In this document: positions 12,292 through 40,904 of the stretch, piece after piece
How positions within the stretch are numbered: the first letter of the stretch is position 1
Layout of the letters: every line of letters begins with the position of its first letter
Assembly: GCA_045106455.1 (NCBI GenBank)
Contig: JBGCEL010000004.1
Coordinates: 6,434-70,433 of the forward strand
Direction of reading: 5' to 3'
DNA from: Gammaproteobacteria bacterium
GTDB lineage: Bacteria; Pseudomonadota; Gammaproteobacteria; Steroidobacterales; JBCCMA01
DNA length: 64,000 nt
The notes under the pieces: generated by a model
Database searches by the model: none
Told to the model about the DNA's origin: nothing
What the model saw: only the letters and a program-made list of their open reading frames with translations
Made by a program: the position numbers and the translations under genes

Positions 12292-12323
12292 ATCGATCCT
12301 TTTTTATTCAAGATTTGCGGCGA

Positions 12324-15620: not shown

Positions 15621-15722
15621 CACCTTCCCCTCCAGACGTTGCCATATGGGGTTGGAGTCAATGCCCGATTGCTTTGCCCCCCCGGGCAACGGTAAGGTCG
15701 AAAAAAAGTCATCGGCAGCGCA

Positions 15723-19027: not shown

Positions 19028-19760
19028 CGATAAAAACCTCGATGAACTGGCTCACGAGATGGCACGTGGCCTGCAACCTGCGAACACGCCATCGCAGCTC
19101 ACCGACGCTGAGCTCCAGGCCTATCTTGATGGTCCCGGTGGTGCCGATATCGAAACTCGATTGGCGCGGGACGATGCCGCTCGCCAACGTCTTGCAACGC
19201 TCGCCGGTGTCGCGCCAGTCGTGGCGCCGACCGCCGTGCGAGAACGCATTCTGGGCCCGGAACCAGCACCGGTTCAACCTAATTGGCTCACCCGCATCGC
19301 CGCCGTCGTGGCGATGCTTGCCGTTGGGCTGGCGGTCTGGATGAGCGGTCCGACCGGTCCGACGGCTGAGCAGCGCCGCGCCTTCGCCGCACTCGACTAC
19401 TCGACCTCATTGCAAGGGCTGGCGCGAGTACGCGGCGTCAATGATGCGCGACCTGCCAGCGCCTATCCCGACAGTTTGGTCAGCATTGAGATTACACCCA
19501 CGGTGAGCACTTCTCTGCCGCTGCACTACGCGCTGTTCGCAGGCCGTCCGCCGCACCAACAACGACTGCAGCCCGTAAGCATACAGTCCAACCGCGGCGC
19601 CGTGACGCTGAAATTTCATCCCGAGCAGTACGCCGCGTTGCAACCCGGTCCGCTGCGCTTGCAAGTGGTTGTAAGTTTGCACGAGCTGCCAACAGACGCC
19701 TCACTTTTTGATAAGCGCGATAAAATTTTCGATTACGACCTGCTGATTCTGGCTCGCTAA
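19020..19760 (+). CDS. single-pass membrane protein with anti-sigma-factor-like N-terminus
   Basis: LTDAELQAYLDGPGGADIETRLARDDAARQRLATL resembles the anti-sigma (ZAS/RskA-type) N-domain but lacks the H/C zinc ligands. One TM helix (WLTRIAAVVAMLAVGLAVWM). Periplasmic C-domain of about 130 aa. ATGAATGA overlap with the CHAT gene stop. Confidence 0.5.
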   Translation: MNDDKNLDELAHEMARGLQPANTPSQLTDAELQAYLDGPGGADIETRLARDDAARQRLATLAGVAPVVAPTAVRERILGPEPAPVQPNWLTRIAAVVAMLAVGLAVWMSGPTGPTAEQRRAFAALDYSTSLQGLARVRGVNDARPASAYPDSLVSIEITPTVSTSLPLHYALFAGRPPHQQRLQPVSIQSNRGAVTLKFHPEQYAALQPGPLRLQVVVSLHELPTDASLFDKRDKIFDYDLLILAR

Positions 19761-19772
19761 AATCAGCACACG

Positions 19773-25227: not shown

Positions 25228-25469
25228 GAAAAAAAAATCCTGAGGCCTGAGCACGGCAGTCTTAACGTAATTCGGCCGAAGTATAACGCAACCCACGCGG
25301 TAACAATTTTCCATATTGTGCAAATTCTTGTGGCAAAGCCCGCGGCCATTGACGCCAATTTGACCTGTGTCCCAATTCCCCCACGACATTATTCCCATCC
25401 GGCCACGCACGCTTTAGATTGATGGAGATCCACCGCTAACGGCCTAACGACGTTCAAACCGACCCCTCT

Positions 25470-27227
25470 ATGACGAAAGACTGTGCAACTCGGTGGCTCT
25501 CTTTGCTTTGCAGTATGATCCCCGGCGTTCGCACCGCGTATTATGTCAATGCGGCAACACCTACTTGTGAGCAGCACATTGTCGCCAGCTACCCAGATGG
25601 CGCCACACCAAACGACGCTATTGAAGCGCTTGTACGCGACACACTGGTTGCGCAAGAGGAAATTGCTCGGCCCGTGCCGGGCGTGGCTATCCCGTCCAAA
25701 AGCTGGGCACTGGCACGACTCGTCGCGGTCGCCAACAGCGTGGGCGTCGTTGCACTTGAATTCGATGACACGACACAAGAGCAGCTAGCCGCTATCGGCC
25801 AACTCGTCGCGTGGGCTGGCCAATGGGCCACACTCGCACAGCCCGCTGCCATGGCGGTCAACCGCCACGAGCCAGACCTGAACCTGGCAAACGTGCTGCT
25901 GGAAGCCGCCACACTTGATCAAGCGCTCGCTAAGGCCTGTCGACACTTGTCCGGGAAGTTTGGCGGCACTCGTGTTGCCATCGGGCTGCACGCGGCGGAC
26001 GCCGTTTCTCTTGCCGCCGTCTCGGATCGCGCAGCATTCGACCGCCGCACGCAAAGCGCCGACCTGTATACGGTCGCGATGAATGAAGCGTTTGATCAAA
26101 GCCGTATTGTCGCCCACCCGCACACGGACACTACCGTTGCCGCCGTTAGCGTCGGCCACCGCAAGCTCGCCGATGCCGAGCGCTCCTGCGCGTGCAGCGT
26201 GCCACTTGGCACGAGCGGCGATCCGGCAGGCATCGTCACGCTGCTGCGCGCTGAATCCAAACCATTCACCGATGACGACATGGCGATGTTGCAACCGTAC
26301 GCCGCTTTGCTCGGGCACATCATCCACGTTCGCCGTCGGGCTGAGCAGGGACCTTGGCGTCGCCTGCGTCAGTCCATGCAGAGTTGGCGCAAACATTGGC
26401 TCATGGCCAATGCCCCGCGTCGCCGGATGGCGGTGGTCGGTGCCGCGGCCGTCATTGCGTTTCTGGCTCTGGGCTCTGCCCCGTATCAGGTGGGCGCACC
26501 GGCGGTTCTGGCCGGCACTTCGGAGCGCACCCTCGCCGCTCCGGTGGACGGTTACTTAAGCGAGGTGCACGTGCGCCCCGGCGCACGCGTTGCGAGTGGT
26601 CAAATTTTAGCCACGCTCGACCCGGCGCCACTGGAACGCCAACGCCGACAGTTGCAGGGCCAGCGTAGCCAACTCAACGGCGAGTACAACGTCGCGCTGG
26701 GCAAATTAGACGGTGCCGCGGCCCGCATTTTGCAGTCTCAACTCGCCCAAACTCATGTCCAGATCGAACATCTGGATGCGCAGCTCTCAAGACTCAATAT
26801 CACGGCGCCATTCGACGGCCTGGTTCTTGATGGCGATCTGATGCACGCCGCGGGCGGCCCCGTCGCACTCGGCGACACCCTTTTCCGACTGACCCCGAAC
26901 GGGGGCTATCTGGTGCGCTTGCACGTCTCGGCGAGCGACGTCGAAGCGATTGGCATTGGCGCACGCGGCCGCCTAAAACTAGCGGCACTGCCCAATGCGC
27001 AGCTGGACATTGAAGTGGTGCGAATTAACGGCATCGCACAAACCGTTGACGGCCGCAGCGTGCTGGAGATGGAAGCCACCGTACACGGCAATCAGGACTA
27101 TCTGCGCCCCGGCATGAAAGGCGTTGCACGGCTCGATGCGGGGCACGCCCGAGTTCTGTGGATCTGGACGCATTCAATTTGGCAACGCATGAAGCTCTGG
27201 TTGTGGCGCTTCAGCCCGGTGGCATAA
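25470..27227 (+). CDS. GAF-domain / TM / HlyD-type periplasmic adaptor fusion protein
   Basis: The cytoplasmic N-half ends in a typical GAF C-terminus (SVPLGTSGDPAGIVTLLRAESKPFTDDDMAMLQPYAALLGHII). One TM helix (MAVVGAAAVIAFLALGSAPY). Adaptor motifs: PVDGYLSEVHVRPGARVASGQILATLD, a coiled-coil hairpin, and ITAPFDGLVLDGDL. Confidence 0.7.
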   Translation: MTKDCATRWLSLLCSMIPGVRTAYYVNAATPTCEQHIVASYPDGATPNDAIEALVRDTLVAQEEIARPVPGVAIPSKSWALARLVAVANSVGVVALEFDDTTQEQLAAIGQLVAWAGQWATLAQPAAMAVNRHEPDLNLANVLLEAATLDQALAKACRHLSGKFGGTRVAIGLHAADAVSLAAVSDRAAFDRRTQSADLYTVAMNEAFDQSRIVAHPHTDTTVAAVSVGHRKLADAERSCACSVPLGTSGDPAGIVTLLRAESKPFTDDDMAMLQPYAALLGHIIHVRRRAEQGPWRRLRQSMQSWRKHWLMANAPRRRMAVVGAAAVIAFLALGSAPYQVGAPAVLAGTSERTLAAPVDGYLSEVHVRPGARVASGQILATLDPAPLERQRRQLQGQRSQLNGEYNVALGKLDGAAARILQSQLAQTHVQIEHLDAQLSRLNITAPFDGLVLDGDLMHAAGGPVALGDTLFRLTPNGGYLVRLHVSASDVEAIGIGARGRLKLAALPNAQLDIEVVRINGIAQTVDGRSVLEMEATVHGNQDYLRPGMKGVARLDAGHARVLWIWTHSIWQRMKLWLWRFSPVA

Positions 27228-29351
27228 ATGCACGCAACCCACACACCCACGCCAACTACCTTTACGCCGTGCCTGACACGCGATGCCAGCGTGCATCGTC
27301 ACAGTTATCGCGGTACGCCGTGGTACATCGTGCACGACGGCATGACCGGACGTAGCCTTCATTTGGCCGCCGGTGCGTGGCGCGTTATCGACGCGATGGA
27401 CGGGCGCCGTTCGCCAGAGGAAATACTCGCGTACTTGCAACGCAACGGTGCACCGGTGCAGGCGAACGATGTGCACAGCGTCTGCGCCGAGTTACTGCGC
27501 GCCGGTCTCCTGCAAGGGACGACTTGTGAACAGGCGGATTCGCTGCAACTGGCAAGCCAGCCGCCCCCCCGCTGGAAACAGTGGCTAACCTCCCCACTTT
27601 CTATTCGCCTGCCGCTGCTTAACCCGCAAGTCTGGCTCGACAAACGTATTGCCAACGTAAGGCCCCTGTTCACGTCCACCACGCTGTGGCTGTGGCTGTC
27701 CGTCGTGATCACGGCCTGCTTTATGGCCGTCAGTCACCAAAACGAGCTGACCGAACGCGTCGCCTCGACCGTGATCAGCCCGTACGGCGTCATCCTGTTT
27801 TTGAGCGTTTACGCAGTAATGAAGTCACTGCACGAACTCGCCCATGCGTTTAGCATCCGGGCCTTCGGTGGCGCCGTCAACGAAATGGGCCTGGTGTTTC
27901 TGGTGTTCATGCCGGTGCCCTACGTCGATGCGGCCGCTGCCACCACGTTTGTCAACAAACGCCAGCGTATGCTCGTGAGCGCGTCGGGCATCATGGTAGA
28001 GGCATTTATTGGCGCGATCGCGCTGATACTCTGGACCAAAATCGAGCCCGGCGTGGTACGCGAAATCTGTTTCGCGGCGCTCATTATCGGTGGCGTCTCG
28101 ACGCTTTTGTTCAACGGCAATCCGTTGCTGCGCTTTGACGGCTACTACGTCTTAAGCGACGCTCTGGAAATACCAAATCTCGCCACCCGCTCGCGCCGCT
28201 ATTTGCACTATGCGATACAGCGGTACATGTTGCGCATGAAAGACGCTATTACTCCGGTTGTCACGCCCTCCGAACGCCTTTGGTTTGTGCTGTACGGCGT
28301 GCTGTCATCCATTTACCGTCTGATCATCCTTGCATTCATTGTCTGGTTTGTATCGCGCCAGGTGCCGTTGGTCGGCTACGCACTGGGCGCCTGGGTGTTT
28401 GTGTCGCAGTTGTTGCTACCAGCATTGCGTGGGTTTACCAGCGTCGTGACGCGGGCGCGCAACGCCACCAACTCGCGGCAAGTGTTATCCCGACTTAGCG
28501 CTACAACGCTCGCCTGCGGTGTCGTGACATTCGGCTTGCCAATGCCGGCGTGGAGCAGCGCTGAGGGCGTGATCTGGATGCCGCCAGAGGCGCAGGTTCG
28601 GGCACCCGTTGACGGCACGGTGGCCACAACACTGCTGGGCGACGGGACCAGCATCGTGCCCGAACAAGCCATTGTGCAGCTCGAAAGCCCGTCGCTTGTG
28701 AATGACGCGCGCGTGATAGCCGAACAGCTCAATGAAGTCCGCGCCCGCCAAAACCTTGCTCTGTTTCGCGATCGCAGCGCACTACGCAGCGTGGCTGAAA
28801 ACCTGCACCAGACCGAAATGCGTCTGACAGAAGCCCAACAGAAAGTACGTTCACTAACGCTAAAGAGTCCGGTCGCCGGTGCGCTGCATTTTTTCGATGA
28901 GAACACGCTCGCCGGGCGCTACGTGCGCAAGGGCGAGGTTCTCGCGTACGTGCGCGATGATCAGGCGCCTATTGTGCGCGTGGTCGTGAAACAAACGCAG
29001 ATCGAAAAACTACGCGACCCGAATACGAATGTTCGCGTGCTCATACCCGGTTATTTGGATCGGCAGTTCGCCGCCACTTTGGTGCAAGAGGTTGGGGCCA
29101 CGACTAACACGCTACCCAGCGCCGCATTGGGTAGCGCGGGCGGCGGCCGCATCGCCACAAATCTGACCGATGAACACCGTCGCACAGCGGCCGAGGACGT
29201 ATTTATCCTCGATGTCCAGCTGGCACCGAACGCACCCGACGTGGCGATCGGCACGCGCGTCTACCTACGCTTCGACTACGCCCCGGCTCCGTTGGCTCAG
29301 CAAATGCTGCGCAGCCTGCGCCAGCTCACGCTCGGTGGCAGCCGTGCGTAA
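27228..29351 (+). CDS. PqqD-like domain / site-2-protease (M50) membrane domain / HlyD-type adaptor tri-fusion
   Basis: TAAATG junction with the upstream gene. N-terminal WYIVHDGMTGRSLHLAAGAWRVIDAMDGRRSPEEILAYL...LLRAGLL is PqqD/RRE-like. Polytopic region carries HELAH (HExxH, 27831-27845) and NGNPLLRFDG (S2P NxxPxxxxDG, about 28113-28142). C-terminal adaptor region (VRAPVDGTV..., coiled coil, LKSPVAGAL). Confidence 0.75.
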   Translation: MHATHTPTPTTFTPCLTRDASVHRHSYRGTPWYIVHDGMTGRSLHLAAGAWRVIDAMDGRRSPEEILAYLQRNGAPVQANDVHSVCAELLRAGLLQGTTCEQADSLQLASQPPPRWKQWLTSPLSIRLPLLNPQVWLDKRIANVRPLFTSTTLWLWLSVVITACFMAVSHQNELTERVASTVISPYGVILFLSVYAVMKSLHELAHAFSIRAFGGAVNEMGLVFLVFMPVPYVDAAAATTFVNKRQRMLVSASGIMVEAFIGAIALILWTKIEPGVVREICFAALIIGGVSTLLFNGNPLLRFDGYYVLSDALEIPNLATRSRRYLHYAIQRYMLRMKDAITPVVTPSERLWFVLYGVLSSIYRLIILAFIVWFVSRQVPLVGYALGAWVFVSQLLLPALRGFTSVVTRARNATNSRQVLSRLSATTLACGVVTFGLPMPAWSSAEGVIWMPPEAQVRAPVDGTVATTLLGDGTSIVPEQAIVQLESPSLVNDARVIAEQLNEVRARQNLALFRDRSALRSVAENLHQTEMRLTEAQQKVRSLTLKSPVAGALHFFDENTLAGRYVRKGEVLAYVRDDQAPIVRVVVKQTQIEKLRDPNTNVRVLIPGYLDRQFAATLVQEVGATTNTLPSAALGSAGGGRIATNLTDEHRRTAAEDVFILDVQLAPNAPDVAIGTRVYLRFDYAPAPLAQQMLRSLRQLTLGGSRA

Positions 29352-29400
29352 GACCTTCACACACATAACGCTCCGCCAGAACACTCTGAGAAACACCACG

Positions 29401-30807
29401 ATGCATCAGTCATTTTTCGCCCCACTCGTTTGCGCCATCATGACCGTTGCTGTGGGCAGCACAACGCTTGCCGACGAGTTCGATGCGCACACCCTGAACT
29501 GCGTGATCCTGCCGGACGAGGTCGTCGACATCAGCAGCTCGGTGCCCGGTGTGCTCGAGCAAGTATTGGTGGAGCGCAGCGATAAGATTCAAAAGGGCCA
29601 GGTGCTGGCACGGTTGGAGGCAAGCGTAGAACAGGCGGTCACAGCGTTGGCGGAAGCACGTGCCACGGCCATCTCTGAACTGCGACTACGCCAGACCGAG
29701 CTCGGCTACGATGTTCAGCATCGTGATCGACTGTCTGAATTACAGCAACGCCATGTCGCATCATCGCAATCTTACGAAGACGCGCAGCGCACGGCAGAAG
29801 CCGCGCGCTGGCGACTCAAACTTGCCGAGGAGCGGCGCGAAGAGGCGCAGCTGGATCAACGCCGTGTCGCCGCCCTGCTCGCACAAAAGACCATTCGCAG
29901 TCCCATCGACGGCGTCGTTATCGCGCGGCATCACTCGGTGGGTGAACATGTTAATAGCGAGGCCGTGGTAACGGTCGCCAGGCTCGACCCGCTGCGGGTA
30001 GAGGTGCTTACGCCGATTGACATGTTCGGCAAAATTCAGCCGGGCATGCTGATGGACGTGCGTGCTGAGATCGACCCACAGACGCGGCACACGGCCGAAG
30101 TCGTGGCCGTGGACCCGGTAGCCGATGCCGGCAGCGGCATGTTTGCCGTTGAGCTCACGTTGCCCAACCCGAATAACGCGCTGCCTGCCGGCATCAAGTG
30201 TTACAGCGAACTGAGCCCAGGCGAGCAACCCTCGCCGACCGCCGCGCCCGCATCCACGGTGGCAGATGCACCCAACCCTGTGACGCCCTCGCCCACCCCC
30301 GTGATCACGGCAAACTTTGATGCCAGCGAACTGTGCCGTGTCTTTCCGGCTGTGACCGAACCCGAATCCATCTCGCGCTTGATGCGCACTGCGGTTGTGC
30401 TGGGTGGACGCGCGCAGAAAATACGCGCCGATGTTGCGGTAGCGAACGGCTACATTGTTGCCTCGCCCCGAGCCGACGCAGCGCAGCTTGAGCAGTGGCA
30501 AGAAACCTTAGGCGCGGCGGGCGAAAACGACACCGCCGTAATGCAACGCGGCGATTTTCGTCAGCGACTGACGATGGGCACCTACAACGGACCGCGCTCG
30601 GCAGAGCGCCGTCGCGATCAAATTGCCGCGCTTGGCGTAAGCGCAGAGGTGCTGCCACGCATGCGCAGCGCCACGGCCTGGAAGATTGAGGTGCAGCTTC
30701 CACAGCCGCTGCCAGCGCCAACCGGCACCCCGCCGCTGGCCGCCTTCATGGAACGCTTTAACAGCGAAGCCGTGCCGTGTGCATCCATTCGCGCGGCGAG
30801 CCTCTAA
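29401..30807 (+). CDS. membrane-fusion (RND/HlyD-type) periplasmic adaptor with Pro-rich linker and C-terminal SPOR-like domain
   Basis: Start at ATG 29401 (signal/anchor MHQSFFAPLVCAIMTVAVGSTTLA). Adaptor motifs VVDISSSVPGVLEQVLVERSDKIQKGQVLARLE and IRSPIDGVVIARH. PSPTAAPASTVADAPNPVTPSPTP linker. The C-terminal RLTMGTYNGPRSAERRRDQIAALGVSAEV is SPOR-like. The track start 29170 is an over-extension. Confidence 0.7.
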   Translation: MHQSFFAPLVCAIMTVAVGSTTLADEFDAHTLNCVILPDEVVDISSSVPGVLEQVLVERSDKIQKGQVLARLEASVEQAVTALAEARATAISELRLRQTELGYDVQHRDRLSELQQRHVASSQSYEDAQRTAEAARWRLKLAEERREEAQLDQRRVAALLAQKTIRSPIDGVVIARHHSVGEHVNSEAVVTVARLDPLRVEVLTPIDMFGKIQPGMLMDVRAEIDPQTRHTAEVVAVDPVADAGSGMFAVELTLPNPNNALPAGIKCYSELSPGEQPSPTAAPASTVADAPNPVTPSPTPVITANFDASELCRVFPAVTEPESISRLMRTAVVLGGRAQKIRADVAVANGYIVASPRADAAQLEQWQETLGAAGENDTAVMQRGDFRQRLTMGTYNGPRSAERRRDQIAALGVSAEVLPRMRSATAWKIEVQLPQPLPAPTGTPPLAAFMERFNSEAVPCASIRAASL

Positions 30808-30814
30808 CGTACTC

Positions 30815-33800
30815 ATGACACGCAAACGATCATCCAGACGGCCCGCAAACGCACTGTCGTTTGCGGTCGAGGCGCTTGAGCCGCGGCTGTTGCTGTCGGC
30901 GGACTGGGCGCTGGGCCTGGCGCCGGATGATGTGCGCGATGATCCGTTCGATCTGGATGCCGCCGCGGCCCATCGAGTGTTACGTGCACTCGGTTCTGAA
31001 GCCCCGTTGCCCGCCTCGATGGATCTGGAACATTTTATGGCACTGCAGCCGGCGACGCCGGAATTTGCCAATGATCAGTCCTTGGCAGAGAAGCCGTCGC
31101 GCACCGATTTTAGACTGCTATCCGGCGATGCCCCGCAAAGTGTTGACGACGGCTATTCGGTAAACGAAGACGAATCGATCACGTTCAACGCCGTGTGGTT
31201 CGACCCGGATTGGATCGCACGCCGTGAACTCACCATCGACAACAGCGCCAGCGCCACTGATCTCAACGACTTTCCGGTATTGATCACGCTCGACGCATCG
31301 CGTATCGACTACAGCCTTACCGAGGATGACGGCGACGATCTGCGCTTCACGGATGACGCCGGCAATCTGCTGGATTACGAGATCGAGCTGTGGGACGAAA
31401 GCGGCACGTCTTACGTATGGGTTCGAGTGGACAGCATTACGGCCGGCTCGACGACCGAGAGTATTTACATGTATTACGGCAATTCCAGCGCCGGCGAAGG
31501 GCAATCGCCCCGGGACGTCTGGGATGCCAACTATCAGCAAGTCCAGCATTTGGAGGAAACAAGCGGCAACTACGATGATTCCACCGCCAATGGTGTTGAC
31601 ATCAGTCTTAGCGGCGGCGACCCCCACGGCGACGACATGTTCATCGGTCCCGCCCATGCTTTTGACGGCACCAACGAACTCGACAGCCAACCTGAAGCAC
31701 TCGATGACAGTCGCGCTGCCGGCACAATTTCCATGTGGGTGGAATTTGATGAGCGCTCCGGCGTGATCAACCTGCTGACCTCGGACGTCGCGCGCGATCA
31801 AGCGATTTGGACTGACGACGGTACGTTTCACGTAGCAATGGCCACGAACTTGTTTACCTTTAGTAACCTGTCCGGAGGGTCGATCGAAAACGGCTGGAAT
31901 CAGGTCGTATTCACTTGGGACAGCGTCACCGGCGAACAGGCGCTTTACGCCAACGGCCTATTGGTCGATCAGGTATCGGTGGGCGCATGGGACCCGGATG
32001 GCGTGGACGGCAACACCATCAACATCGGTGGCGCCGCCGACGCCTTTCTGGGCTTTTTTCCCGAGCGCGACGGCCTCCAGGGCGGCATCGATGAAATACG
32101 CGTGTCCGACGTGGCGCGCTCGGCCGATTGGGTGGCCGCACAGTTCGCCACCATCAACGACAATTTTATTAGCTATGGTGCCGAAGAAGGGGCTGCCCGC
32201 GGCGTGCTGGAAAACGACACCGATGCCGAGAACGATGTGCTGGCCGCGGTCCTTGAAACCGGTCCGAGCAATGCCGCATCGTTTACGCTGTTTGCCGACG
32301 GCAGTTTCGAATACACGCCGCAGGCCAATTTCGTCGGCACCGACTCGTTTACCTACCGCGCCGATGACGGCAGCAGTCTCTCGGCGGCCGCGGCGACGGT
32401 CACCATCACCGTCAACGCGGTGAACGACGCCCCGACGTTCACGCTTGGCGGCGCACAGAACGTGAACGAAGATGGCGGTGGACAGAGTGTGGCGAATTTC
32501 TCCGTCGCCTCTGCGGGAGGCGGCGCTGATGAGTCGGGCCAAACGTTTACGTACATCGTCACCGGCGACAACCCGGGCCTGTTTTCGGTAGCACCGAGTA
32601 TTGATGCGGACGGCACACTTACCTACACGCTGGCACCTAACGCCGTTGGCAGCGCCAACCTGACCGTGCAGATGTCCGATTCCGGTGGCACGGCCAATGG
32701 CGGTAGTGACGCCGCTGTCGCGGAAAACTTTGTGATCAACGTTGCTCCCGTAAACGACGCACCTTCGGCCACGTTACTTGGCAACCAAACGGTCGTCGAG
32801 AATGCCGGCCCGCAGGCAGTGGCAAACTTTGCCGCCGGTTTTACGGGTGGTGGCGCGGATGAGAGCGGGCAAAACTTGTCTTATACGGTCATAACCGGTT
32901 TTCCCGCGCTGTTCAGCGCTGCTCCGGCCATCTCTCCCGACGGCACGCTGACGTTCACATTTGCCGACGGGATGTCTGGCTCCACCACGGTGGACGTGAT
33001 TGTCAGGGACGATGGGGGCACTGCGAATGGCGGTCAAGACACCTCTACCACCTACACCTTCACTCTGACCGCGACGCCGGCGTCGGTACCGCCGACGGCG
33101 CTGAACATGGATCAGACACTCAGCTACATTGAAGACAACACGCTCGACCTCGCGAACATCATTGTCAGCGACGGCGATGCCGGCGATGTGATTACCGCAA
33201 CGCTCACGCTGGCCGATCCATTGGCAGGTAGTTTGAGCACGCTCAGCGGCGCAGGCGAAACGTACGTAGCGGCCACGGGACGCTGGCGCATCGTGGGCAC
33301 GCAAGCCGAAGTGAACACCGCACTCGCCAACGTCACGTTCGTCCCGGCTGCCAACTACGCGCTGGATACGAGCATTGCAGTGAATATTCAAGATGCGGAC
33401 GGAACCGGCCCTGCGGATGGGCTGATCGAGCTTAACGCCCTGGCCGTTAACGATGCGCCCTCCGCAACGCTCGCAGGCGACGTCAACGTTTTGGAGAACT
33501 CAGGACCACAAACCATCGCCGGATTTGCGGTTGGATTTGTCGGTGGCGGTACTGATGAGGCCGGTCAAGCACTCACTTATATAGTGAGCGCTGATCAGGT
33601 CAACATGTTTAGCAGCGGCCCGGTGATTTCCTCGGACGGCACCCTGAGCTTCACCACCGCGGACAACGTTACCGGCAGTGCAACCGTTCGCGTGCGCGTG
33701 ATCGACGATGGCAACACCGCCAATGGCGGGCAAAATCAGTCGGTCGACTACACGTTCAATATCATCATCAATGATCGGCCCGATGCACCGACGACCACCA

Positions 33801-36550
33801 ACATGAACCAAGTCGTGCTGTATACCGAAGACGGCGGCCCGGTCGACTTTGCGGACATGGTGGTGAGCGACGACGATCCGGGCGAGACGATTACCGCAAC
33901 GCTAACACTCGCTGATCCCACAGCCGGCGTGTTGACCACGCTCAGCGGTTCGGGCGAGACCTACAATGCCGTTGCCGGTCAGTGGCAAATCACCGGCAAC
34001 GCAGCCACCGTGAATGCGGCGCTTGCCAATCTATCGTTCGCGCCCGGTGCAAACTACGCGCTCGATACGAGCATCAACGTGCGTATTGTCGACGCCGCCG
34101 GCACTGGCCCGTCCGACGGAACGATCGCGCTGCAGGCGATCGCCATCAACGATACACCCCAGGCCATCTTTGCCGGCGATATTGCCGTGGACCAGAACGC
34201 CGGAGCTCAAACTTTTGCAGGCTTCGCGACACCGTCCCCCGGTGGTGGCACAGATGAACTCGCACAAACATTTACCTATACCGTCACCGTGGATAACGGC
34301 GCTTTATTTAGCGTTGCGCCCGCCATCACGCCCGACGGTACGCTCACGTTTACGGCCGCGGACAACACTTCCGGCAGCACCACGGTACGCGTGCGCGTCA
34401 CCGATAGCGGCGACACCGTCAATGGCGGTCAAGACCAGTCGATCGAATATGTGTTCCAAATTGACATCGGCGCACCCACTGCGACCAACTTGAATCAGGT
34501 CGTCAACTACATTGAAGACGGCGACCCGGTTGGGTTTGATGCCATTGTCGTAAGCAATGCTGCCCCGGATGAAACCATTACAGCGACACTCAGCCTGAGC
34601 GATCCGGCCGCCGGATCGCTGTCCACTGCAAGCGGTTTGGGCGAGACATTGACCACCTCAGGACAGTGGCGAATCACCGGCACCGTCGCACAGGTCAACG
34701 CCGCACTTGCCGACGTCACGTTTACGGCTGCGAACAATTACGCACAAGACTTGAGCATTGTCGTGCGCATCACCGATGCGGCCGGAAACGGGCCTGCTGA
34801 TGGTTTGCTGGCCCTCCAGGCAACCGCCGTCAATGATGCACCACTGGCAAGCCAGCTCAATCAAATCCAGAATTTTCTGGAAGACACCATTGACGTGGCG
34901 CTCAACGACATTGTGGTCAGTGATGTTGACGCCGGCGACGTTGTTTCTGCCACGTTAACCCTGGACAACCCGGCGGCAGGACAGCTGTCGAGCTCGAGTG
35001 GCAACGGCGAATCCTATGACGCACGCAGCGGCACCTGGCGCGTCAGTGGTAGCACGGCGCAAGTGAGTGCCGCCCTGGCCGCTGTCGTGTTCGAACCGCT
35101 GAATGATTTTGCCGGCAGTGTCAGCGTACGCACACAGATTGTGGATCAAGACGGTGCCGGGCCCGATGCCGGCGTCATTACTCTGCAGGCCACGGCCGTA
35201 AACGATGCACCAACCGTCGCCGTTTCCGGCGATTTGGTGGTTGACGAAGACGCCCCGGCCCAACGCATAGCCGGCTTTGCAAACGTGCTAGACAACGGCG
35301 GCGCGGACGAGAGCGGTCAAACCATCGTCTACAGTCTCAGCACCGACAATGAAGATTTATTCCGGGTCGCACCCTCCATCAGCGAGACGGGCGAACTCCA
35401 TTACGAGCTTGCCGCCAACGCCAACGGCACCGCCAACATCACCGTCGTGGCGCGCGATGATGGCGGTCGCGACAACGGCGGCGTCGACACGGCTCCTACA
35501 CAGCAGTTCGTGATTCAGGTCAATCCTGTCAACGACGCGCCGGAAGCAACCAGCCAGTTTGTGGTCGCGCCGCCCTCTGGCATTGTGGTGCTGTCAGCGG
35601 CTTCGTTCGGATTTACCGATCCCGCCGATGGCGATACCTTCGAAGGCGTATTTATTACAAGTTTGCCAGCGCAAGGCGAACTGTTGCTCGACGGTCAACC
35701 CGTGGCCGCCGGCGCGTTCGTTTCGGCCGCCGATCTTGTCGCAAATCGGCTGTCGCTGTCGTCGTTTGCCATACCCGGCGATAGCCTGCTACTGAGTTTC
35801 GATTTTCTAGTCCGTGACTCGGGTGGTACCGCCGATGGCGGCACCGACGTGGCGGTCAAGACCAGCACGATTACGATATCTGTCGACGTACCCAAGACGG
35901 ACGGCACCACGAACACAACACCAGCCGTGATCTCAGAAGCCGACGCCTCGGCCGACACGACCACCGCAACGGTCGTCAGCGACGCGGATCAGTCGACCGA
36001 TGAACAGCGGTCTGCTCCCGCGATCGACCTGAGCACGCCGGCAAGCCCTGCAACCCTTGCGCCCACGGTCGCCGTCACAACGCCGGTGACGAGCCTGCTC
36101 GAGATTCCCCAAGCCGCCGATGCAACCCAAGCGGCGAAGACTTTCAGTCCGGCGGTATCGCGTGTGCTGGTTTCACTGCTCGAAAATGTCCGCTCCGGCA
36201 TTGGCGATGCCACTGTCATCCAGACCACGGCCACCACGACGCTTGCGGCCGTCACCGAGATACTCGTGGAGCAACTTAGCGACCTGCGCGACGAAACCGG
36301 CGCCGAGCAGGCCTCGGAGGAACTGGTCATCATGCAGTCCAGCGCGGTGGCCTTCGGCTTGTCGGTAGGCTACGTCTCCTGGTTGCTGCGTGGCGGTGTG
36401 TTGGTCAGCAGCATGCTTACCTCCCTGCCGGCCTGGCGCTTTATTGATCCATTGCCGATTTTCTCGGGCGTACGACAAGGTGACGAGGACGAAGAGTCGT
36501 TGCAGGATATCGTCAGCGCCGACGAGCACGACACAGGACCACAAGCGTGA
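30815..36550 (+). CDS. 1911-aa repeat adhesin-like protein: LEPR-XLL N-terminus, DUF2341 + LamG-like, about 100-aa VNDAP-delimited repeats, C-terminal membrane anchor
   Basis: ATG 30815 lies 8 nt after the upstream stop. N-terminus MTRKRSSRRPANALSFAVEALEPRLLLSAD. DUF2341-like block (RRELTIDNSASATDLNDFPVLITLD...YVWVRVDSI...IYMYYGN). LamG-like block (...IDEIRVSDVARSADWVAAQF). Ten repeat modules follow. C-terminal hydrophobic segment AVAFGLSVGYVSWLLRGGVLVSSMLTSLPAW, then an acidic tail. Confidence 0.8.
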   Translation: MTRKRSSRRPANALSFAVEALEPRLLLSADWALGLAPDDVRDDPFDLDAAAAHRVLRALGSEAPLPASMDLEHFMALQPATPEFANDQSLAEKPSRTDFRLLSGDAPQSVDDGYSVNEDESITFNAVWFDPDWIARRELTIDNSASATDLNDFPVLITLDASRIDYSLTEDDGDDLRFTDDAGNLLDYEIELWDESGTSYVWVRVDSITAGSTTESIYMYYGNSSAGEGQSPRDVWDANYQQVQHLEETSGNYDDSTANGVDISLSGGDPHGDDMFIGPAHAFDGTNELDSQPEALDDSRAAGTISMWVEFDERSGVINLLTSDVARDQAIWTDDGTFHVAMATNLFTFSNLSGGSIENGWNQVVFTWDSVTGEQALYANGLLVDQVSVGAWDPDGVDGNTINIGGAADAFLGFFPERDGLQGGIDEIRVSDVARSADWVAAQFATINDNFISYGAEEGAARGVLENDTDAENDVLAAVLETGPSNAASFTLFADGSFEYTPQANFVGTDSFTYRADDGSSLSAAAATVTITVNAVNDAPTFTLGGAQNVNEDGGGQSVANFSVASAGGGADESGQTFTYIVTGDNPGLFSVAPSIDADGTLTYTLAPNAVGSANLTVQMSDSGGTANGGSDAAVAENFVINVAPVNDAPSATLLGNQTVVENAGPQAVANFAAGFTGGGADESGQNLSYTVITGFPALFSAAPAISPDGTLTFTFADGMSGSTTVDVIVRDDGGTANGGQDTSTTYTFTLTATPASVPPTALNMDQTLSYIEDNTLDLANIIVSDGDAGDVITATLTLADPLAGSLSTLSGAGETYVAATGRWRIVGTQAEVNTALANVTFVPAANYALDTSIAVNIQDADGTGPADGLIELNALAVNDAPSATLAGDVNVLENSGPQTIAGFAVGFVGGGTDEAGQALTYIVSADQVNMFSSGPVISSDGTLSFTTADNVTGSATVRVRVIDDGNTANGGQNQSVDYTFNIIINDRPDAPTTTNMNQVVLYTEDGGPVDFADMVVSDDDPGETITATLTLADPTAGVLTTLSGSGETYNAVAGQWQITGNAATVNAALANLSFAPGANYALDTSINVRIVDAAGTGPSDGTIALQAIAINDTPQAIFAGDIAVDQNAGAQTFAGFATPSPGGGTDELAQTFTYTVTVDNGALFSVAPAITPDGTLTFTAADNTSGSTTVRVRVTDSGDTVNGGQDQSIEYVFQIDIGAPTATNLNQVVNYIEDGDPVGFDAIVVSNAAPDETITATLSLSDPAAGSLSTASGLGETLTTSGQWRITGTVAQVNAALADVTFTAANNYAQDLSIVVRITDAAGNGPADGLLALQATAVNDAPLASQLNQIQNFLEDTIDVALNDIVVSDVDAGDVVSATLTLDNPAAGQLSSSSGNGESYDARSGTWRVSGSTAQVSAALAAVVFEPLNDFAGSVSVRTQIVDQDGAGPDAGVITLQATAVNDAPTVAVSGDLVVDEDAPAQRIAGFANVLDNGGADESGQTIVYSLSTDNEDLFRVAPSISETGELHYELAANANGTANITVVARDDGGRDNGGVDTAPTQQFVIQVNPVNDAPEATSQFVVAPPSGIVVLSAASFGFTDPADGDTFEGVFITSLPAQGELLLDGQPVAAGAFVSAADLVANRLSLSSFAIPGDSLLLSFDFLVRDSGGTADGGTDVAVKTSTITISVDVPKTDGTTNTTPAVISEADASADTTTATVVSDADQSTDEQRSAPAIDLSTPASPATLAPTVAVTTPVTSLLEIPQAADATQAAKTFSPAVSRVLVSLLENVRSGIGDATVIQTTATTTLAAVTEILVEQLSDLRDETGAEQASEELVIMQSSAVAFGLSVGYVSWLLRGGVLVSSMLTSLPAWRFIDPLPIFSGVRQGDEDEESLQDIVSADEHDTGPQA
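32420..35890 (+). repeat. ten tandem ~110-120-aa modules of three types (order A-A-B-A-B-A-B-B-A-C) within the adhesin gene
   Basis: Most junctions carry VNDAP. Type A consensus: ...ENxGxQxxxxFAxxxxGGGxDExGQxxTYxV...LFSxxPxIxxDGTLTFT...GSxxVxVxVxDxGxTANGGxD. Type B consensus: ...NxxQxxxYxEDxxxxxxxIVVSDxDxGxxITATLTLxDPxAGxLxTxSGxGETY...WxIxGxxAxVNxALAxxxF...DAxGxGPxDGxIxLxAxA. Boundaries are approximate. Confidence 0.7.
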
Positions 36551-39051
36551 AACGACCGTCAGCACGCACAATGGTAACCATCGCCATTACTTTGGTGATG
36601 CTCAGCCTGTTTTTATTCAGCACCGTGCTTGGCATGTTCCCCGACATCGAAAAGACCCGCCGTGAAGGGCGTGTGACCGTCGCTGAGCTCATGGCACTTG
36701 GCCTGATTAATGACATCGGTAACGAACGAGAAGATCGCATCGGACAAACGCTGCGTTTTGCCGTAGAGCGAAATTCTGACATCGAATCAGCCGCCGTGCG
36801 CGACGCCAGCGGCCTTGCCATTGGCACCGCCGGTGACCACGCGGGCTACTGGACCCCCATCCAAAGCGGGCAATCGAGCGTGGCGCAGATCACTGTGCCA
36901 ATCATGCGCGGGAACACACAATGGGGTTCACTCGAACTGCGTTTCCGTGAGCACCAGCGACCGGGCGTGGTGGGTATGCTTGATCGGCCTATCGTGCGCT
37001 TTGCACTGTATCTGCTCGTTGGCGGGTTCTTTGCCACCTATTTTATTTTGGGTCGCATGCTGCGCGCTTTAGATCCCACGCAGGCCGTGCCCTCGCGCGT
37101 ACGCTCAGCGCTGGACACCATAAGCGAAGGCCTCATCGCCATCGACACCAAAGGTCAGGTGATGCTTGCCAACGCCGCCTTCGCGACCCTCTGCGGGCGC
37201 GATGCCGATGCACTTGTGGGCATAAGCGTCGCAGATCTTGCGTGGGTTGGCGATGAAGACGGTCAGGTTAAGCATCCGTGGGAGCGCACGCTGCAAGACA
37301 GTCAGGCCGTTATTAACGAATCGATGACGCTCAAAGATAAAGACGGGAAGCAGCGCACGTTCCTCGTTAACTGCTCACCGGTGCTCGGCGGCAACGGCAA
37401 AGCACTTGGTGCACTGATTGGTCTTGGCGACGTTACCGAACTCGAGGAAAAAGAAATTCAGTTACGGCGCTCCAAAGAAGAGGCCGAAGCCGCCAACCGC
37501 AGCAAAAGCGAATTTTTGGCCAACATGAGTCATGAAATTCGAACGCCCATGAACGCTATTCTGGGCTTTACGAACCTGCTCAAGCGCGGCTACGCCAAGA
37601 ACGCACAGCAGCGTCAGGAATATCTGCAGACCATTGAGTCCAGTGGTTCGTTCTTGCTCGAACTTATTAACGATTTGCTGGATCTGTCCAAAATCGAGGC
37701 CGGCTCGCTGACCATGGAGACCCTCGAGTGTGAGGCGCATTTGGTCGTTCGCGACGTCTGCACGACGCTGCAGCTGCGTGCGCAGGAAAACAACGTTGAC
37801 CTCTCATTTGCCGTCACCACAGAAATACCCCAGCACATTCAGACCGACCCGACGCGTTTGCGGCAGATCGTGACAAACCTTCTGGGTAACGCCATCAAAT
37901 TCACCTCGGACGGCACCGTGGATGTCACCGTGGCACTCGATGCCGACGACCCTACCCTGCTCGCCGTGGCCGTCACCGACTCGGGCGTGGGCATGACAGA
38001 GGACCAAACGAAGGCGATTTTCGAGCCCTTCGTGCAGGCTGATTCATCCATTACGCGACGCTTTGGCGGCACGGGTCTCGGCCTGTCCATTAGCCGACGC
38101 TTCGCACGTGCACTGGGTGGCGACATTTATGTCGACAGCACGGCCGGCGTTGGCAGCACCTTCACAGCGCGGATTGCCACCGGCAATACCGAAGGTGTGC
38201 CTCGCATCTCGCCCGAAGCAGCCTCCCAGGCCGTGCACATCGAAGAGGCGGTTTCCACGTCAAGCCTGCATCTGCCCAATGCGCATGTGCTGGTGGCAGA
38301 CGACAACAAACAGAATCGCGATCTGCTGCGTCTGGTGCTGGAGGAGCACGGTTTGCGTGTGACAACCGCCGTTAATGGCGAGGAGGCCGTTGCGGCTGTG
38401 TCCGAAAGCATGTTCGACATTATATTGATGGACGTGCAAATGCCGGTAATGGACGGCTACGAGGCCACACGCGCCATACGATCCAGCGGTATCGAAGTGC
38501 CCATTATTGCCCTTACGGCTCTGCTCATTGGCGAGGCTCGAGACGCACTGCTTGAAGCAGGCTTCGACGCCTTCTTCGCCAAACCCATCGATGTAGACGG
38601 CCTGCTTGAACTTATCGCCGAGAAGCTCGGCAGCCTGCCCGCGTGCACGCTGCAGCAGACCCCGCGCGACGGGCCGACCCCGGATACCGAATCGACCGCG
38701 CCCATTGCGTCGCGTTTGCCAGTACACGACCCGCGCTACCGGGACATTGTGCAAGAATTTGTCGACCAGCTTGATGACACGATCAAACAGCTGCGCGATG
38801 CGTTTGATGTGGGCGATCACAAACGTCTGGCTGAGGTAGCGCACTATCTCAAGGGCGTTGCTGGCAGCATGGGCTATCCCGACTTCACCGCGCCTTGCAG
38901 AGATTTAGAGCACGCGGTCACCTCACGACACGATGCCAATATTCGCGCCAGCCTGAGCGTCATCGACGCACTCGCCGCGCGCGTCGTTTTGAGCGACGTC
39001 TCGGTTGCGGTGACGGACAGCCGCACAGCTTCAGTCGCAGCAGCACAATAA
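36547..39051 (+). CDS. hybrid sensor histidine kinase (2 TM, PAS, HisKA, HATPase_c, REC, HPt)
   Basis: GTG 36547 overlaps the adhesin stop (GTGA). H-box SEFLANMSHEIRTPMNAILGF. G-boxes DSGVGM and GGTGLGLSISRRFA. Receiver VLVADDNKQNRDLL...DIILMDVQMPVMDG. HPt-like AHYLKGVAGSMGY. Confidence 0.9.
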   Translation: MKRPSARTMVTIAITLVMLSLFLFSTVLGMFPDIEKTRREGRVTVAELMALGLINDIGNEREDRIGQTLRFAVERNSDIESAAVRDASGLAIGTAGDHAGYWTPIQSGQSSVAQITVPIMRGNTQWGSLELRFREHQRPGVVGMLDRPIVRFALYLLVGGFFATYFILGRMLRALDPTQAVPSRVRSALDTISEGLIAIDTKGQVMLANAAFATLCGRDADALVGISVADLAWVGDEDGQVKHPWERTLQDSQAVINESMTLKDKDGKQRTFLVNCSPVLGGNGKALGALIGLGDVTELEEKEIQLRRSKEEAEAANRSKSEFLANMSHEIRTPMNAILGFTNLLKRGYAKNAQQRQEYLQTIESSGSFLLELINDLLDLSKIEAGSLTMETLECEAHLVVRDVCTTLQLRAQENNVDLSFAVTTEIPQHIQTDPTRLRQIVTNLLGNAIKFTSDGTVDVTVALDADDPTLLAVAVTDSGVGMTEDQTKAIFEPFVQADSSITRRFGGTGLGLSISRRFARALGGDIYVDSTAGVGSTFTARIATGNTEGVPRISPEAASQAVHIEEAVSTSSLHLPNAHVLVADDNKQNRDLLRLVLEEHGLRVTTAVNGEEAVAAVSESMFDIILMDVQMPVMDGYEATRAIRSSGIEVPIIALTALLIGEARDALLEAGFDAFFAKPIDVDGLLELIAEKLGSLPACTLQQTPRDGPTPDTESTAPIASRLPVHDPRYRDIVQEFVDQLDDTIKQLRDAFDVGDHKRLAEVAHYLKGVAGSMGYPDFTAPCRDLEHAVTSRHDANIRASLSVIDALAARVVLSDVSVAVTDSRTASVAAAQ

Positions 39052-39095: not shown

Positions 39096-40904
39096 ATGAC
39101 AACGCGCCCAACAACGGATGGAACACTGGAGGTCGCCGCCGCGAGCAAAAGCGCCGGCGCCGACCCTAAGATTATGATCGTGGACGACGCTTCCATGACC
39201 ATCCGAATTCTGCAAACGTTTTTGGAAGATGCCGGCTATCGTCGCTTCGTGACCACCAGCGATTCGACCCAAGCCATTGAGCTGGTCGAGTCCGAGCGAC
39301 CTGATGCGTTGCTGCTGGACCTGCATATGCCAAGTGTTAGCGGCTTTGATATTTTGGAGCAAATTCGCGCGAGCTTCGACATTCGCCACACTCCCGTTAT
39401 TATTCTCACCGCCTCCGATGACGGCAACAGCAAACTAAAAGCACTGGAGCTTGGTGCTACGGACTTTTTGGCCAAGCCGGTCGATACCAGCGAACTGGCA
39501 CTGCGCCTGCGCAATACTCTGGCCACCAAAACCTATCAGGATCGACTGACGTACTACGATCCGCTCACCGATTTACCCAATCGAAAACTGCATAGCGAGC
39601 GACTCTCGCGCAGTCTCGTCCGCGCATTTCGAAGTAGACAACGCGGCGCCATGCTGCACATCAATCTCGACCGCTTTCGCCGCGTAAACTCCTCGCTCGG
39701 CCACGCTGCCGGCGACCATCTGCTGCGGCACACGGCGCAGCGACTCGATCGAATTGTGCGCCAACTCGACAACTCCGTGTCGTTGTCCATGGAACCCGGT
39801 ACACCCACGGCCGCTCGTTTGGGTGGCGACGAATTCGGAGTTCTACTGCCCACCGTCGAAAGCAACGATGCCGCCCGCGCCATTGCAGAGCAGATCCTCG
39901 GTGCCATCACCAAGCCGGTGGAATGGAAAGGCAGCGAAGTGGTGGTTACCGCCAGCATTGGCGTCGAGACGTTTCCAGACTCCGCCACCACCACGCAGCA
40001 GATTATTCGCAACGTCACGCTGGCGGCCGCTCGCGCCCGGTCGCTGGGTCGCAACCGGCATGAAGTATATTCGCCGCTGTCCGAGGCCAGCGTGTCGCAG
40101 GAAGTGCATCTTGAAAGCGATCTGCATCGCGCCCTGTCGCGCAACGAGCTGCGCTTGCACTATCAACCCAAAGTGGACCTGGCGACGGGCAATATCGGCA
40201 GCGCCGAGGCACTATTGCGCTGGGAGCACAAAACCCGCGGTCTGGTGAGTCCCAGCGAATTTATCCCGCTAGCCGAACAAACCGGTCTCATCGTGCCGTT
40301 TGGCACCTGGGTCATCCAAACCGCCTGCGCGCAAATCCGGCAGTGGTGCGATGACGGCCTGCCGCCGCTGCCGGTGGCGGTAAACGTCTCCAGCCTGCAG
40401 TTTGCCAACGGTGACCTGTTATCCATCGTGGCCGACGCCATTACCACCGCCGGTATCGCGCCTGCGCTGCTCATTTTGGAGCTCACCGAAACCGCCGTTC
40501 TAAAAAACACCGAAGAGACGATTAGCACTCTGCACGCGATTCGCTCGCTCGGGGTCAAACTGTCGCTGGATGATTTCGGAACCGGTTACTCGTCACTGTC
40601 GTATCTTGAGCGACTGCCAATCGACCAACTAAAAATCGATCGGTCGTTTGTCGAGAAAATTGAAGACGGCAACACCGCGCCCATCGTAGACGCCGTGATC
40701 GCCATGGCCAAGAGTCTCGGCATGCACACCGTGGCGGAGGGTGTCGAAGAACCCTGTCAGGTGGACTACCTCAAGGCCCGCCACTGCGATCAATATCAAG
40801 GCTTTTACTTTTCGCGCGCCGTAGACCCCGTGTCGTTCGGCAACCTGGTGGCCGAACAAATGAAGCGCGAGCGGCCGCAAGTCAGCACGGCGCAAGCACG
40901 CTAA
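39096..40904 (+). CDS. response regulator with REC-GGDEF-EAL domains (c-di-GMP turnover)
   Basis: Start re-picked at ATG 39096. REC IMIVDDASMTIRIL...LLLDLHMPSVSGFD. Intact RLGGDEFGVLL. EAL-domain motifs SAEALLRWEH and SLDDFGTGYSSLSYL. Confidence 0.9.
   Translation: MTTRPTTDGTLEVAAASKSAGADPKIMIVDDASMTIRILQTFLEDAGYRRFVTTSDSTQAIELVESERPDALLLDLHMPSVSGFDILEQIRASFDIRHTPVIILTASDDGNSKLKALELGATDFLAKPVDTSELALRLRNTLATKTYQDRLTYYDPLTDLPNRKLHSERLSRSLVRAFRSRQRGAMLHINLDRFRRVNSSLGHAAGDHLLRHTAQRLDRIVRQLDNSVSLSMEPGTPTAARLGGDEFGVLLPTVESNDAARAIAEQILGAITKPVEWKGSEVVVTASIGVETFPDSATTTQQIIRNVTLAAARARSLGRNRHEVYSPLSEASVSQEVHLESDLHRALSRNELRLHYQPKVDLATGNIGSAEALLRWEHKTRGLVSPSEFIPLAEQTGLIVPFGTWVIQTACAQIRQWCDDGLPPLPVAVNVSSLQFANGDLLSIVADAITTAGIAPALLILELTETAVLKNTEETISTLHAIRSLGVKLSLDDFGTGYSSLSYLERLPIDQLKIDRSFVEKIEDGNTAPIVDAVIAMAKSLGMHTVAEGVEEPCQVDYLKARHCDQYQGFYFSRAVDPVSFGNLVAEQMKRERPQVSTAQAR

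Follow-up and report, generated by a model that had tools for sequence, protein, structure and literature searches.

The 64,000-nucleotide stretch analysed here, the window (Gammaproteobacteria bacterium, assembly GCA_045106455.1, contig JBGCEL010000004.1, forward strand positions 6,434 to 70,433), encodes a giant repeat adhesin which ends in a conserved C-terminal module. This module and the LEPR-XLL motif at the N-terminus of the adhesin are genetically tied to genes encoding periplasmic adaptors, an intramembrane site-2 protease (S2P) and in some loci a SecA-like protein, as well as to a hybrid histidine kinase and a GGDEF-EAL pair for cyclic di-GMP (c-di-GMP) turnover. Based on the comparisons described below, we propose, with a probability of roughly 0.45, that the module serves as a docking, retention and sorting element of LEPR-XLL giant adhesins, lodged in an apparatus consisting of GAF-HlyD, S2P-HlyD and HlyD proteins with or without a truncated SecA. 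The module probably marks the long-missing substrates of what has been an orphan machine.

A conserved C-terminal module of giant adhesins

The adhesin is encoded in an open frame from 30686 to 36550, with the likely startcodon being the ATG at 30815, 8 nt past the stopcodon of the upstream HlyD gene. Translation of the plus strand frame ending at 36550 exactly reproduces the C-terminus quoted in an initial annotation of this DNA, with the ELV of the tail beginning at nt 36320 and the stopcodon ending at 36550. When the last 153 residues were searched against 5.8 billion proteins, 22 relatives were found with E-values down to 5e-21, and a profile built from those relatives matched 5,183 representatives of clusters at 50% identity, with 3,691 of these at E<=1e-10. 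The module occupies the extreme C-terminus in all matches listed, in host proteins of up to 4,583 aa, and constitutes the last ~110 residues of the adhesin. In alignments of 21 and 99 sequences, the module residues G, W, R, P, W, D and P are invariant. The stretch SLPAWRFIDPLP, for which the initial annotation had suggested an alignment of homologues, is therefore conserved, and the hydrophobic segment and WRFIDPLP motif are likewise kept in the homologues. Judged from these searches and alignments, the conservation of the module is far beyond chance.

The module consensus reads LDxxR...GLSVGYVxWLxRGGVLxSSxLSSLPAWRxIDPLPVL...DDxSLExL, and both the order and the spacing of its elements are fixed: a helix with the LDxLRxE motif, a 20-aa helix (H1), R[GS]G, a 13-aa helix (H2) with PAW at its end, [RQ]xIDPLPV[LF], a linker that is usually acidic, and an ESLExLV-like motif. 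Variation is found at the second and third positions of the RGG, which can be G/S/T/A and G/S/E, respectively (RSG, RGS, RTS, RAG and RGE occur among the relatives), while the length of H2 is 13 residues in all 76 of the 76 motif-matched locus sequences. The tail following the helices measures 34–96 residues across the family, and has the ESLExLV-like motif 19–23 residues past the W in 238 of 244 sequences; the corresponding region was predicted with low confidence as a helix (138–146) in the first AlphaFold2 model. The tail had been described as strongly acidic, which holds for this adhesin (10 D/E and 1 K/R in the final 36 residues) but not for the family, where 175 of the 244 tails are acidic, 64 neutral and 5 basic. 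On these counts, the conserved feature of the tail is the ESLExLV-like motif rather than acidity itself. A Comamonadaceae-type variant of the module (L053, L060, L061, L069, L079; P0016-P0020) has PAWQ instead of PAWR, a linker rich in K/R and Pro, and EVEKLFD replacing the acidic run and ESLExLV.

The module is not covered by Pfam, NCBIfam or PDB, and the tail alone gave no NCBIfam match at E<=10. Solved structures included no relative of either the module or the protease, the plasmid collection gave no match, and we found no account of the C-terminal module in the literature on LEPR-XLL, DUF4347 or M50/HlyD/GGDEF. Known C-terminal signals (RTX/type 1, autotransporter barrel, LPXTG, PEP-CTERM and GlyGly-CTERM) were all rejected, as neither motif nor model matched. 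Regular expression searches of the whole adhesin gave no GGxGxD, LPxTG or PEP motifs, and RTX, autotransporter and CTERM-sorting models from Pfam and NCBIfam matched neither the whole adhesin nor, at E<=10, the tail alone. Similarly, the adhesin has no Pfam match to HemolysinCabind, and there was no Pfam or NCBIfam match to a C-terminal beta-barrel or TpsB partner, with the AlphaFold2 model of the tail being all-helical. These scans bear out the initial annotation, which had seen neither RTX repeats, nor a beta-barrel, nor a sorting signal.

At its other end, the adhesin belongs to the LEPR-XLL proteins (NCBIfam NF012209), scoring 23.6 bits with a cut-off of 17, and has no classical Sec signal peptide (the top 19-mer has a Kyte-Doolittle mean of 0.88). 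The full-length module proteins almost all begin with LEPR-XLL, and the exceptions are visibly truncated open reading frames (ORFs). The 250 aa preceding the module in the adhesin are rich in A (14.8%), T (13.6%), V (10.4%) and S (10.4%).

The module is linked to an adaptor and protease apparatus

A pattern scan of GTDB genomes gave at least 495 module loci in Gamma-, Beta-, Delta- and Alphaproteobacteria and in Planctomycetes, and 80 loci were retrieved for gene-order comparison, with most loci coming from metagenome-assembled genomes (MAGs). The recurrent order in the retrieved loci is GAF-HlyD, S2P-HlyD, (truncated SecA), HlyD, giant protein, hybrid kinase and REC-GGDEF-EAL. An orthologous kinase (E ~1e-200) is located directly downstream of the giant gene in 60 of the 75 loci with enough sequence, with an estimated gap between the two genes of 15 nt (median), and within ±30 nt in 44/61; the kinase is followed by a REC-GGDEF-EAL gene in related loci. 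The upstream machinery was found in 17 of the 21 loci with at least 3 kb of upstream sequence, and the four exceptions have interrupted giant ORFs. Cultured carriers of the module include Marinobacter sp. F3R11, Neptunomonas japonica, N. qingdaonensis, Noviherbaspirillum suwonense and Denitromonas halophila, and the machine locus is carried by Methylobacterium extorquens AM1.

In the window, the adhesin gene comes fourth in a cluster of genes that all lie on one strand (Table 1), and the GTG startcodon of the kinase overlaps the stopcodon of the adhesin (GTGA). The periplasmic domain of this kinase contains conserved arginines R42 and R75. The GAF-HlyD protein, which has orthologues in the related loci, consists of a cytoplasmic N-terminal region with the GAF domain, a single transmembrane (TM) segment at approximately aa 320–338, and the adaptor domain. 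The S2P-HlyD protein matches daptide_HExxH (3e-47), YydH/LiaK (5e-11), HlyD_3 (1e-7) and Peptidase_M50 (E 0.065), and its N-terminal region resembling PqqD and the recognition element (RRE) of ribosomally synthesised peptides that are modified post-translationally (RiPPs) gives weak matches (PqqD E 0.005, ApyI E 0.0013); with 161 bits it remains below the cut-off of 300 of the daptide_HExxH equivalog. Residues H202, E203, H206, N296, N298, P299 and D304 (HExxH and NxxPxxxxDG) are conserved in at least 90% of 20 homologues, as is the intramembrane residue E258. The S2P-type protease of the initial annotation is thus present with intact catalytic motifs, both here and in related loci. In the third adaptor, the extension at the C-terminus (30199–30804) resembles SPOR below the threshold (E 0.093), a hint of peptidoglycan binding.

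In 12 of the 80 loci, as well as in L083-L085, the cluster includes a gene for a truncated SecA paralogue (600–670 aa), mostly between the protease-adaptor and the third adaptor. The paralogue contains the DEAD motor (SecA_DEAD), the P-loop and the preprotein cross-linking domain but lacks scaffold, wing and finger, and corresponds to SecA positions ~18–550 of 787. Several genomes have at least two module-bearing giant genes (Table 1), either in tandem or far from the cluster as 'orphans' without kinase or machinery nearby. Such a distribution, with several module proteins per genome and part of them encoded apart from the cluster, would be expected if the module were a sorting signal served in trans.

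A profile search with the N-terminal LEPR motif returned almost only fragments of 30–80 aa. The contexts of six such fragments were inspected, and in this small and biased sample four were part of the module system (L082-L085) and two were outside (L081 and L086). An RTX-domain gene following the LEPR gene in L085 was discarded as uninterpretable, being located in a frameshifted long-read assembly.

Character and predicted topology of the helix

None of the 19-mers in the module reaches a Kyte-Doolittle mean of 1.6, and the hydrophobic core is located 37–72 residues from the end of the adhesin. By a crude, position-independent Hessa sum, the best 19-mer comes to ~+4.5 kcal/mol, whereas TM helices in the adjacent kinase, adaptors and protease range from −2.3 to +2.3. 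At nearly every position of the core the conservation score is 7–9 of 9, on all faces of the helix, whereas hardly any residue reaches ≥90% conservation in the true TM anchors of the partner proteins. Because all faces of the helix are conserved and the genuine TM anchors of its neighbours barely are, we infer that protein, and not lipid, surrounds the module helix. An autonomous lipid anchor appears to be a poor fit to both the hydrophobicity and the conservation of every helix face.

When AlphaFold2 was run twice, once with the 21-sequence and once with the 99-sequence alignment, each run predicted one unbroken helix extending through RGG and H2 (block pLDDT 86–90). A hairpin of two helices was absent from both, which leans against such a structure without disproving it. 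In a hairpin reading, the module would form a tight helical hairpin with both ends outside and the RGG as a turn at the cytoplasmic face, so that the periplasmic acidic tail could be sensed by the periplasmic domain of the kinase. The small-residue faces on H1 and H2 would suit helix-helix packing, the acidic flanks on both sides and the lone Arg in the loop fit the positive-inside rule, and the kinase is translationally coupled and has the conserved R42 and R75. Against this, H2 is merely 13 residues long, the turn tolerates RSG, RTS, RAG and RGE, and K/R-rich linkers occur right after H2 in variants, and overall we regard the hairpin as improbable.

A cytoplasmic location of the tail is suggested instead by the variants with a K/R-rich linker directly after H2, by the Arg directly following H1, and by analogy with giant proteins of the Omnitrophota (see below). 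A 261-aa protein (P0021, L087:742-1527), in which a Sec-type signal peptide and Peptidase_M15_3 are fused directly to the module, was set aside, as it comes from a single 2.4-kb contig with ~2x coverage and may be chimeric. If real, this fusion would put the segment before H1 in the periplasm (N-out H1).

The marginal hydrophobicity, together with the position at the end of a secreted giant protein, would also be in keeping with an exported membrane-insertion element, comparable to those of pore-forming toxins or translocators and weakly hydrophobic to spare the inner membrane of the producer. However, near-invariance on all faces implies a specific protein partner and not lipid, the conserved partners are of the cytoplasm type and kinase coupling is tight, and the passenger domains are adhesin-like (Big_9, cadherin-like and DUF2341), making this a very improbable explanation.

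Proposed export and tethering of the adhesin

In the mechanism that we infer, including its topology, the docking inside the machine, the direction of export and the link to signalling, the unfolded giant chain would be fed from the cytoplasm into a trans-periplasmic duct. This duct would be formed by the three adaptor proteins, the presence of which suggests that it spans the periplasm. Its platform in the inner membrane would be the membrane domain of the S2P, and a SecA-type ATPase would drive it as the motor. Export would halt once the long helix H1-RGG-H2 lodges within the protein platform at the inner membrane, leaving the adhesin tethered by its C-terminus with its N-terminus outside. 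The PAWRFIDPLP motif and the ESLExLV tail would stay cytoplasmic, where they could contact the RRE, GAF, SecA-like or kinase domains, and the translationally coupled hybrid kinase and the REC-GGDEF-EAL regulator would link the status of the adhesin to c-di-GMP.

More tentatively, the C-terminal module and the N-terminal ExLEPR leader may together identify the substrates of the SecA_DEAD, M50-HlyD, GAF-HlyD and HlyD proteins. This apparatus could then be a distinct envelope-spanning route, neither type 1 nor Sec, in which a truncated SecA and an S2P-adaptor platform thread the adhesins out and leave them tethered by their helix, and in which the kinase and GGDEF-EAL protein read occupancy or release of the tether as c-di-GMP.

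Several points weigh against the docking and export scheme, starting with the computational basis of all inference. AlphaFold2 is a crude tool for an isolated membrane segment and gives weak evidence against a hairpin, and positive-inside counting is ambiguous for most members of the family, with 3.0 K/R and 4.4 D/E in the N-flank versus 2.5 K/R and 6.5 D/E in the C-flank. The site-2 protease fold is not known to form a protein-conducting pore. In the 64-kb window, tblastn found no SecA-like gene, and there was neither an ABC transporter nor a TolC-type channel among the annotated ORFs of the window; an ABC transporter was also absent from the clustered loci. Both the motor and the outer-membrane exit are therefore without a candidate gene here. 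Finally, LEPR-XLL was noted on an RTX/serralysin giant protein (PMC10868602), and the N-terminal signal is thus not exclusive to the module system.

The presence of LEPR-XLL on RTX proteins, which use C-terminal signals, could also be taken to mean that the module is itself a type-1-like C-terminal secretion signal, read by the cytoplasmic domains of the adaptor and S2P proteins, entering the duct first and being either cleaved by the S2P or exported along. There are indeed three HlyD-type adaptors, the locus was earlier judged 'type I secretion related', and the module is C-terminal and common to several substrates per genome. However, neither RTX repeats nor an ABC transporter were seen, and the sequences of type 1 secretion signals show little conservation and lack hydrophobicity, whereas the 36-residue hydrophobic core of the module is near-invariant. 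Furthermore, SecA motors thread their substrates from N- to C-terminus, opposite to a chain entering with its C-terminus, and we consider this explanation unlikely.

Which end of the adhesin may be the protease substrate

The initial annotation suggested that the C-terminal segment may be a tail anchor and an attractive substrate for the S2P. In its fuller form, the module would be embedded in lipid as one long or two short TM helices, and the S2P would cut within it for regulated release, similar to LapG acting on LapA. An S2P with intact catalytic residues is encoded alongside, in this locus as in related ones, the operon contains c-di-GMP enzymes, and H2 is rich in the helix-destabilising residues Ser, Gly and Pro (SSxLSSLP). 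The substrate helix also has an invariant Arg with a candidate partner in the protease: from their positions, E258 and R1859 of the adhesin (36389–36391, in the middle of the hydrophobic helix) could form an intramembrane salt bridge. In addition, the layout of LDxLRxE, spacer and hydrophobic helix resembles that of RiPP precursors handled by RRE-S2P enzymes. Known S2P substrates are cut in TM helices with an N-in/C-out orientation and helix-destabilising residues, usually primed by a prior cut, and H1 with its passenger outside would have the opposite orientation. The segment also seems too weakly hydrophobic for an autonomous anchor, and the nearest protease family trims N-terminal leaders with ELExMEAP, similar to the N-terminal ExLEPR of the adhesins. 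Taken together, cleavage of a lipid-embedded anchor is doubtful, although it fares better than the hairpin or the type-1-like signal.

The N-terminal ExLEPR motif may be an equally good or better S2P substrate than the C-terminal helix, and may be a leader bound by the RRE. It is a strong rival because the E-x-M-E-A-P of the MpaP leader (see below) aligns with the invariant E-x-L-E-P-R of the adhesins. Every substrate carries both end signals, so their co-occurrence did not separate the two ends.

The proposed choice of an anchor rather than a secretion signal is a false one, with the module better described as a family-specific signature of the substrates of a dedicated apparatus and, most likely, as their sorting signal too, and the initial interpretation as a whole is partly supported.

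Other features of the window and related loci

Table 1. Features of the adhesin cluster in the window, and selected features of related loci (L numbers)
Feature	Position	Strand	Basis or further loci
GAF-domain protein fused to HlyD-type periplasmic adaptor	25470..27227	+	Pfam GAF_2 6e-8, HlyD_3 3e-16; hydropathy
Intramembrane HExxH (site-2-type) metalloprotease with weak N-terminal PqqD/RRE-like domain and C-terminal HlyD domain	27228..29351	+	NCBIfam, Pfam
Third HlyD/RND-type periplasmic adaptor with C-terminal extension	29398..30807	+	NCBIfam RND_mfp 3e-35 (above cut-off), Pfam HlyD_3/HlyD_D23
Giant repeat adhesin, 1,911 aa: LEPR-XLL N-terminus, DUF2341, tandem-95/Big_9/cadherin-like repeats, T/A-rich linker, C-terminal module	30815..36550	+	Translation, Pfam, NCBIfam
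LEPR-XLL N-terminal motif (FAVEALEPRLLLSADW)	30860..30913	+	NCBIfam NF012209, 23.6 bits, cut-off 17
LDxLRxE-type motif (QLSDLRDE), helix leading into module	36272..36295	+	LD..R consensus, alignments and 236 sequences
H1, 20-residue moderately hydrophobic helix IMQSSAVAFGLSVGYVSWLL with GLSVGY (GxxxG) core	36329..36388	+	Alignments, hydropathy, conservation scores
RGG, Arg (R1859) invariant	36389..36397	+	Alignments
H2, 13 residues (VLVSSMLTSLPAW), Leu face and Ser face, PAW end conserved	36398..36436	+	Alignment, conservation scores 7-9 of 9
Juxtamembrane motif RFIDPLPIF ([RQ]xIDPLPV[LF]); D and P invariant	36437..36463	+	Alignments, conservation scores
Acidic cluster and short amphipathic motif (GDEDEESLQDIV; consensus [DE][DE]xSLExLV)	36479..36514	+	Motif search; AlphaFold2
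Hybrid histidine kinase: 2 TM, ~120-aa periplasmic domain, PAS, HisKA, HATPase, REC, Hpt	36547..39051	+	Pfam
REC-GGDEF-EAL response regulator (c-di-GMP turnover)	39096..40904	+	Pfam EAL 2e-76, GGDEF 5e-33, Response_reg 1e-28
Truncated SecA, example	L027:1874-3880		Also L017, L036, L038, L050, L054, L058, L074, L083, L084, L085
Genomes with multiple module genes			L028, L078, L005, L082; MAGs L003+L009, L016+L040, L019+L022, L065+L077

Elsewhere in the window, three same-strand genes at 16127–21413 encode a 966-aa CHAT-domain protein, a 246-aa protein without Pfam match and a 546-aa divergent S8 subtilase, which may be a protease-based module unrelated to the adhesin finding. Two adjoining large genes are found at 9493–15740 (−). 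The product of one (932 aa) has G8 and CEMIP beta-helix domains, and that of the other (1,138 aa) a MauG-like di-haem cytochrome c peroxidase domain. There are also two large GH16-family proteins, one of 698 aa (23314–25410, −) with an N-terminal segment repeated three times, and one of 2,070 aa (55221–61433, +) whose N-terminus resembles that of a lipoprotein and which matches GH16 twice and contains Big_12 domains. The two proteins suggest a beta-glucan-degrading marine gammaproteobacterium. At the thresholds used, no Pfam family was matched by the products of 51063–54548 (−, 1,161 aa), 62156–63724 (−, 522 aa) and 1252–2058 (+, 268 aa).

Comparison with known systems

In the LapA/LapBCE/LapG/LapD system, c-di-GMP controls the retention and release of a giant type-1-secreted adhesin. 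The system described here resembles it in having a giant repeat adhesin within an envelope conduit made of adaptors, a protease of its own and c-di-GMP enzymes, all predicted from genes. LapA, however, has an N-terminal plug and RTX repeats, and relies on a periplasmic cysteine protease and an ABC transporter, whereas here the putative retention element is a C-terminal helix and proteolysis would fall to an adaptor-fused intramembrane metalloprotease, with neither RTX nor an ABC transporter. The PEP-CTERM/exosortase, GlyGly-CTERM/rhombosortase and LPXTG/sortase systems use a motif, a TM helix and a basic cluster at the very end of their substrates. They share with the module a short conserved C-terminal signature on several surface proteins per genome, which is tied to a membrane-embedded protease, but the module is composed of helix, RGG, helix and PAWRFIDPLP, followed by a mostly acidic tail of 34–96 residues, it goes with another enzyme family, and it matches none of the models. 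By analogy, the system would work most like a Lap-type retained adhesin or a pair of CTERM signal and intramembrane enzyme, yet it fails the defining tests of each.

With regard to the protease, the daptide biosynthesis protein MpaP is an RRE-fused intramembrane site-2 protease that removes an ELExMEAP leader ahead of a hydrophobic core (bioRxiv 10.1101/2023.03.08.531785). This is the top family match of the window protease (3e-47), both may have an N-terminal PqqD/RRE-like region, and ELExMEAP is similar to the ExLEPR of the adhesins. The differences are that MpaP acts on peptides of ~50 aa and lacks a HlyD domain, whereas the presumed substrates here are 1,300–4,600 aa in size, and that the window protease stays short of the family cut-off (161 versus 300 bits) with a weak RRE match (E 0.005). 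Giant proteins of the Omnitrophota have C-terminal TM anchors followed by SecA DEAD and preprotein-binding domains, without scaffold and wing (West-Roberts et al. 2023, bioRxiv 10.1101/2023.11.21.568195). They have in common with our system a giant extracellular passenger, C-terminal membrane segments and a SecA-like motor without scaffold and wing; there, however, the giant proteins carry the SecA-like domains in cis and have type II/IV-like machinery as neighbours, and the likeness to the module is one of architecture.

The closest precedent for the locus itself is the 'secondary SecA_DEAD' four-gene locus of Kamneva, Poudel & Ward 2015 (PMC4452313), consisting of GAF-HlyD, Peptidase_M50-HlyD, SecA_DEAD and HlyD/biotin-lipoyl genes. 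In their proposal SecA_DEAD is the ATPase and the M50 protein the membrane component, with the role of the locus being 'completely unknown', and components of the locus can be encoded elsewhere in the genome. The cluster in our window differs in being without a SecA_DEAD gene (tblastn, 64-kb window), and the 2015 description names no substrate, giant protein or adhesin, kinase, GGDEF-EAL pair or C-terminal module. The three adaptor genes of the window, on the other hand, have the same domain architectures in the same order (GAF-HlyD, M50-HlyD and HlyD), and the truncated SecA of the related loci matches the 'secondary SecA_DEAD' and is mostly located between M50-HlyD and HlyD. What is new is the module itself, its role as the common signature of LEPR-XLL giants beside the 2015 locus, and the tight coupling to a hybrid kinase and GGDEF-EAL protein. 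The signature GLSVGYVxWLxRGGVLxSSxLSSLPAWRxIDPLP allows thousands of giant surface proteins to be found. If true, the proposed scheme would represent a new Gram-negative way to export and tether very large adhesins, and a new link from adhesin to c-di-GMP with relevance for biofilms of marine and freshwater Proteobacteria and Planctomycetes. The module ties giant proteins to an apparatus that has been without substrate or role since 2015.

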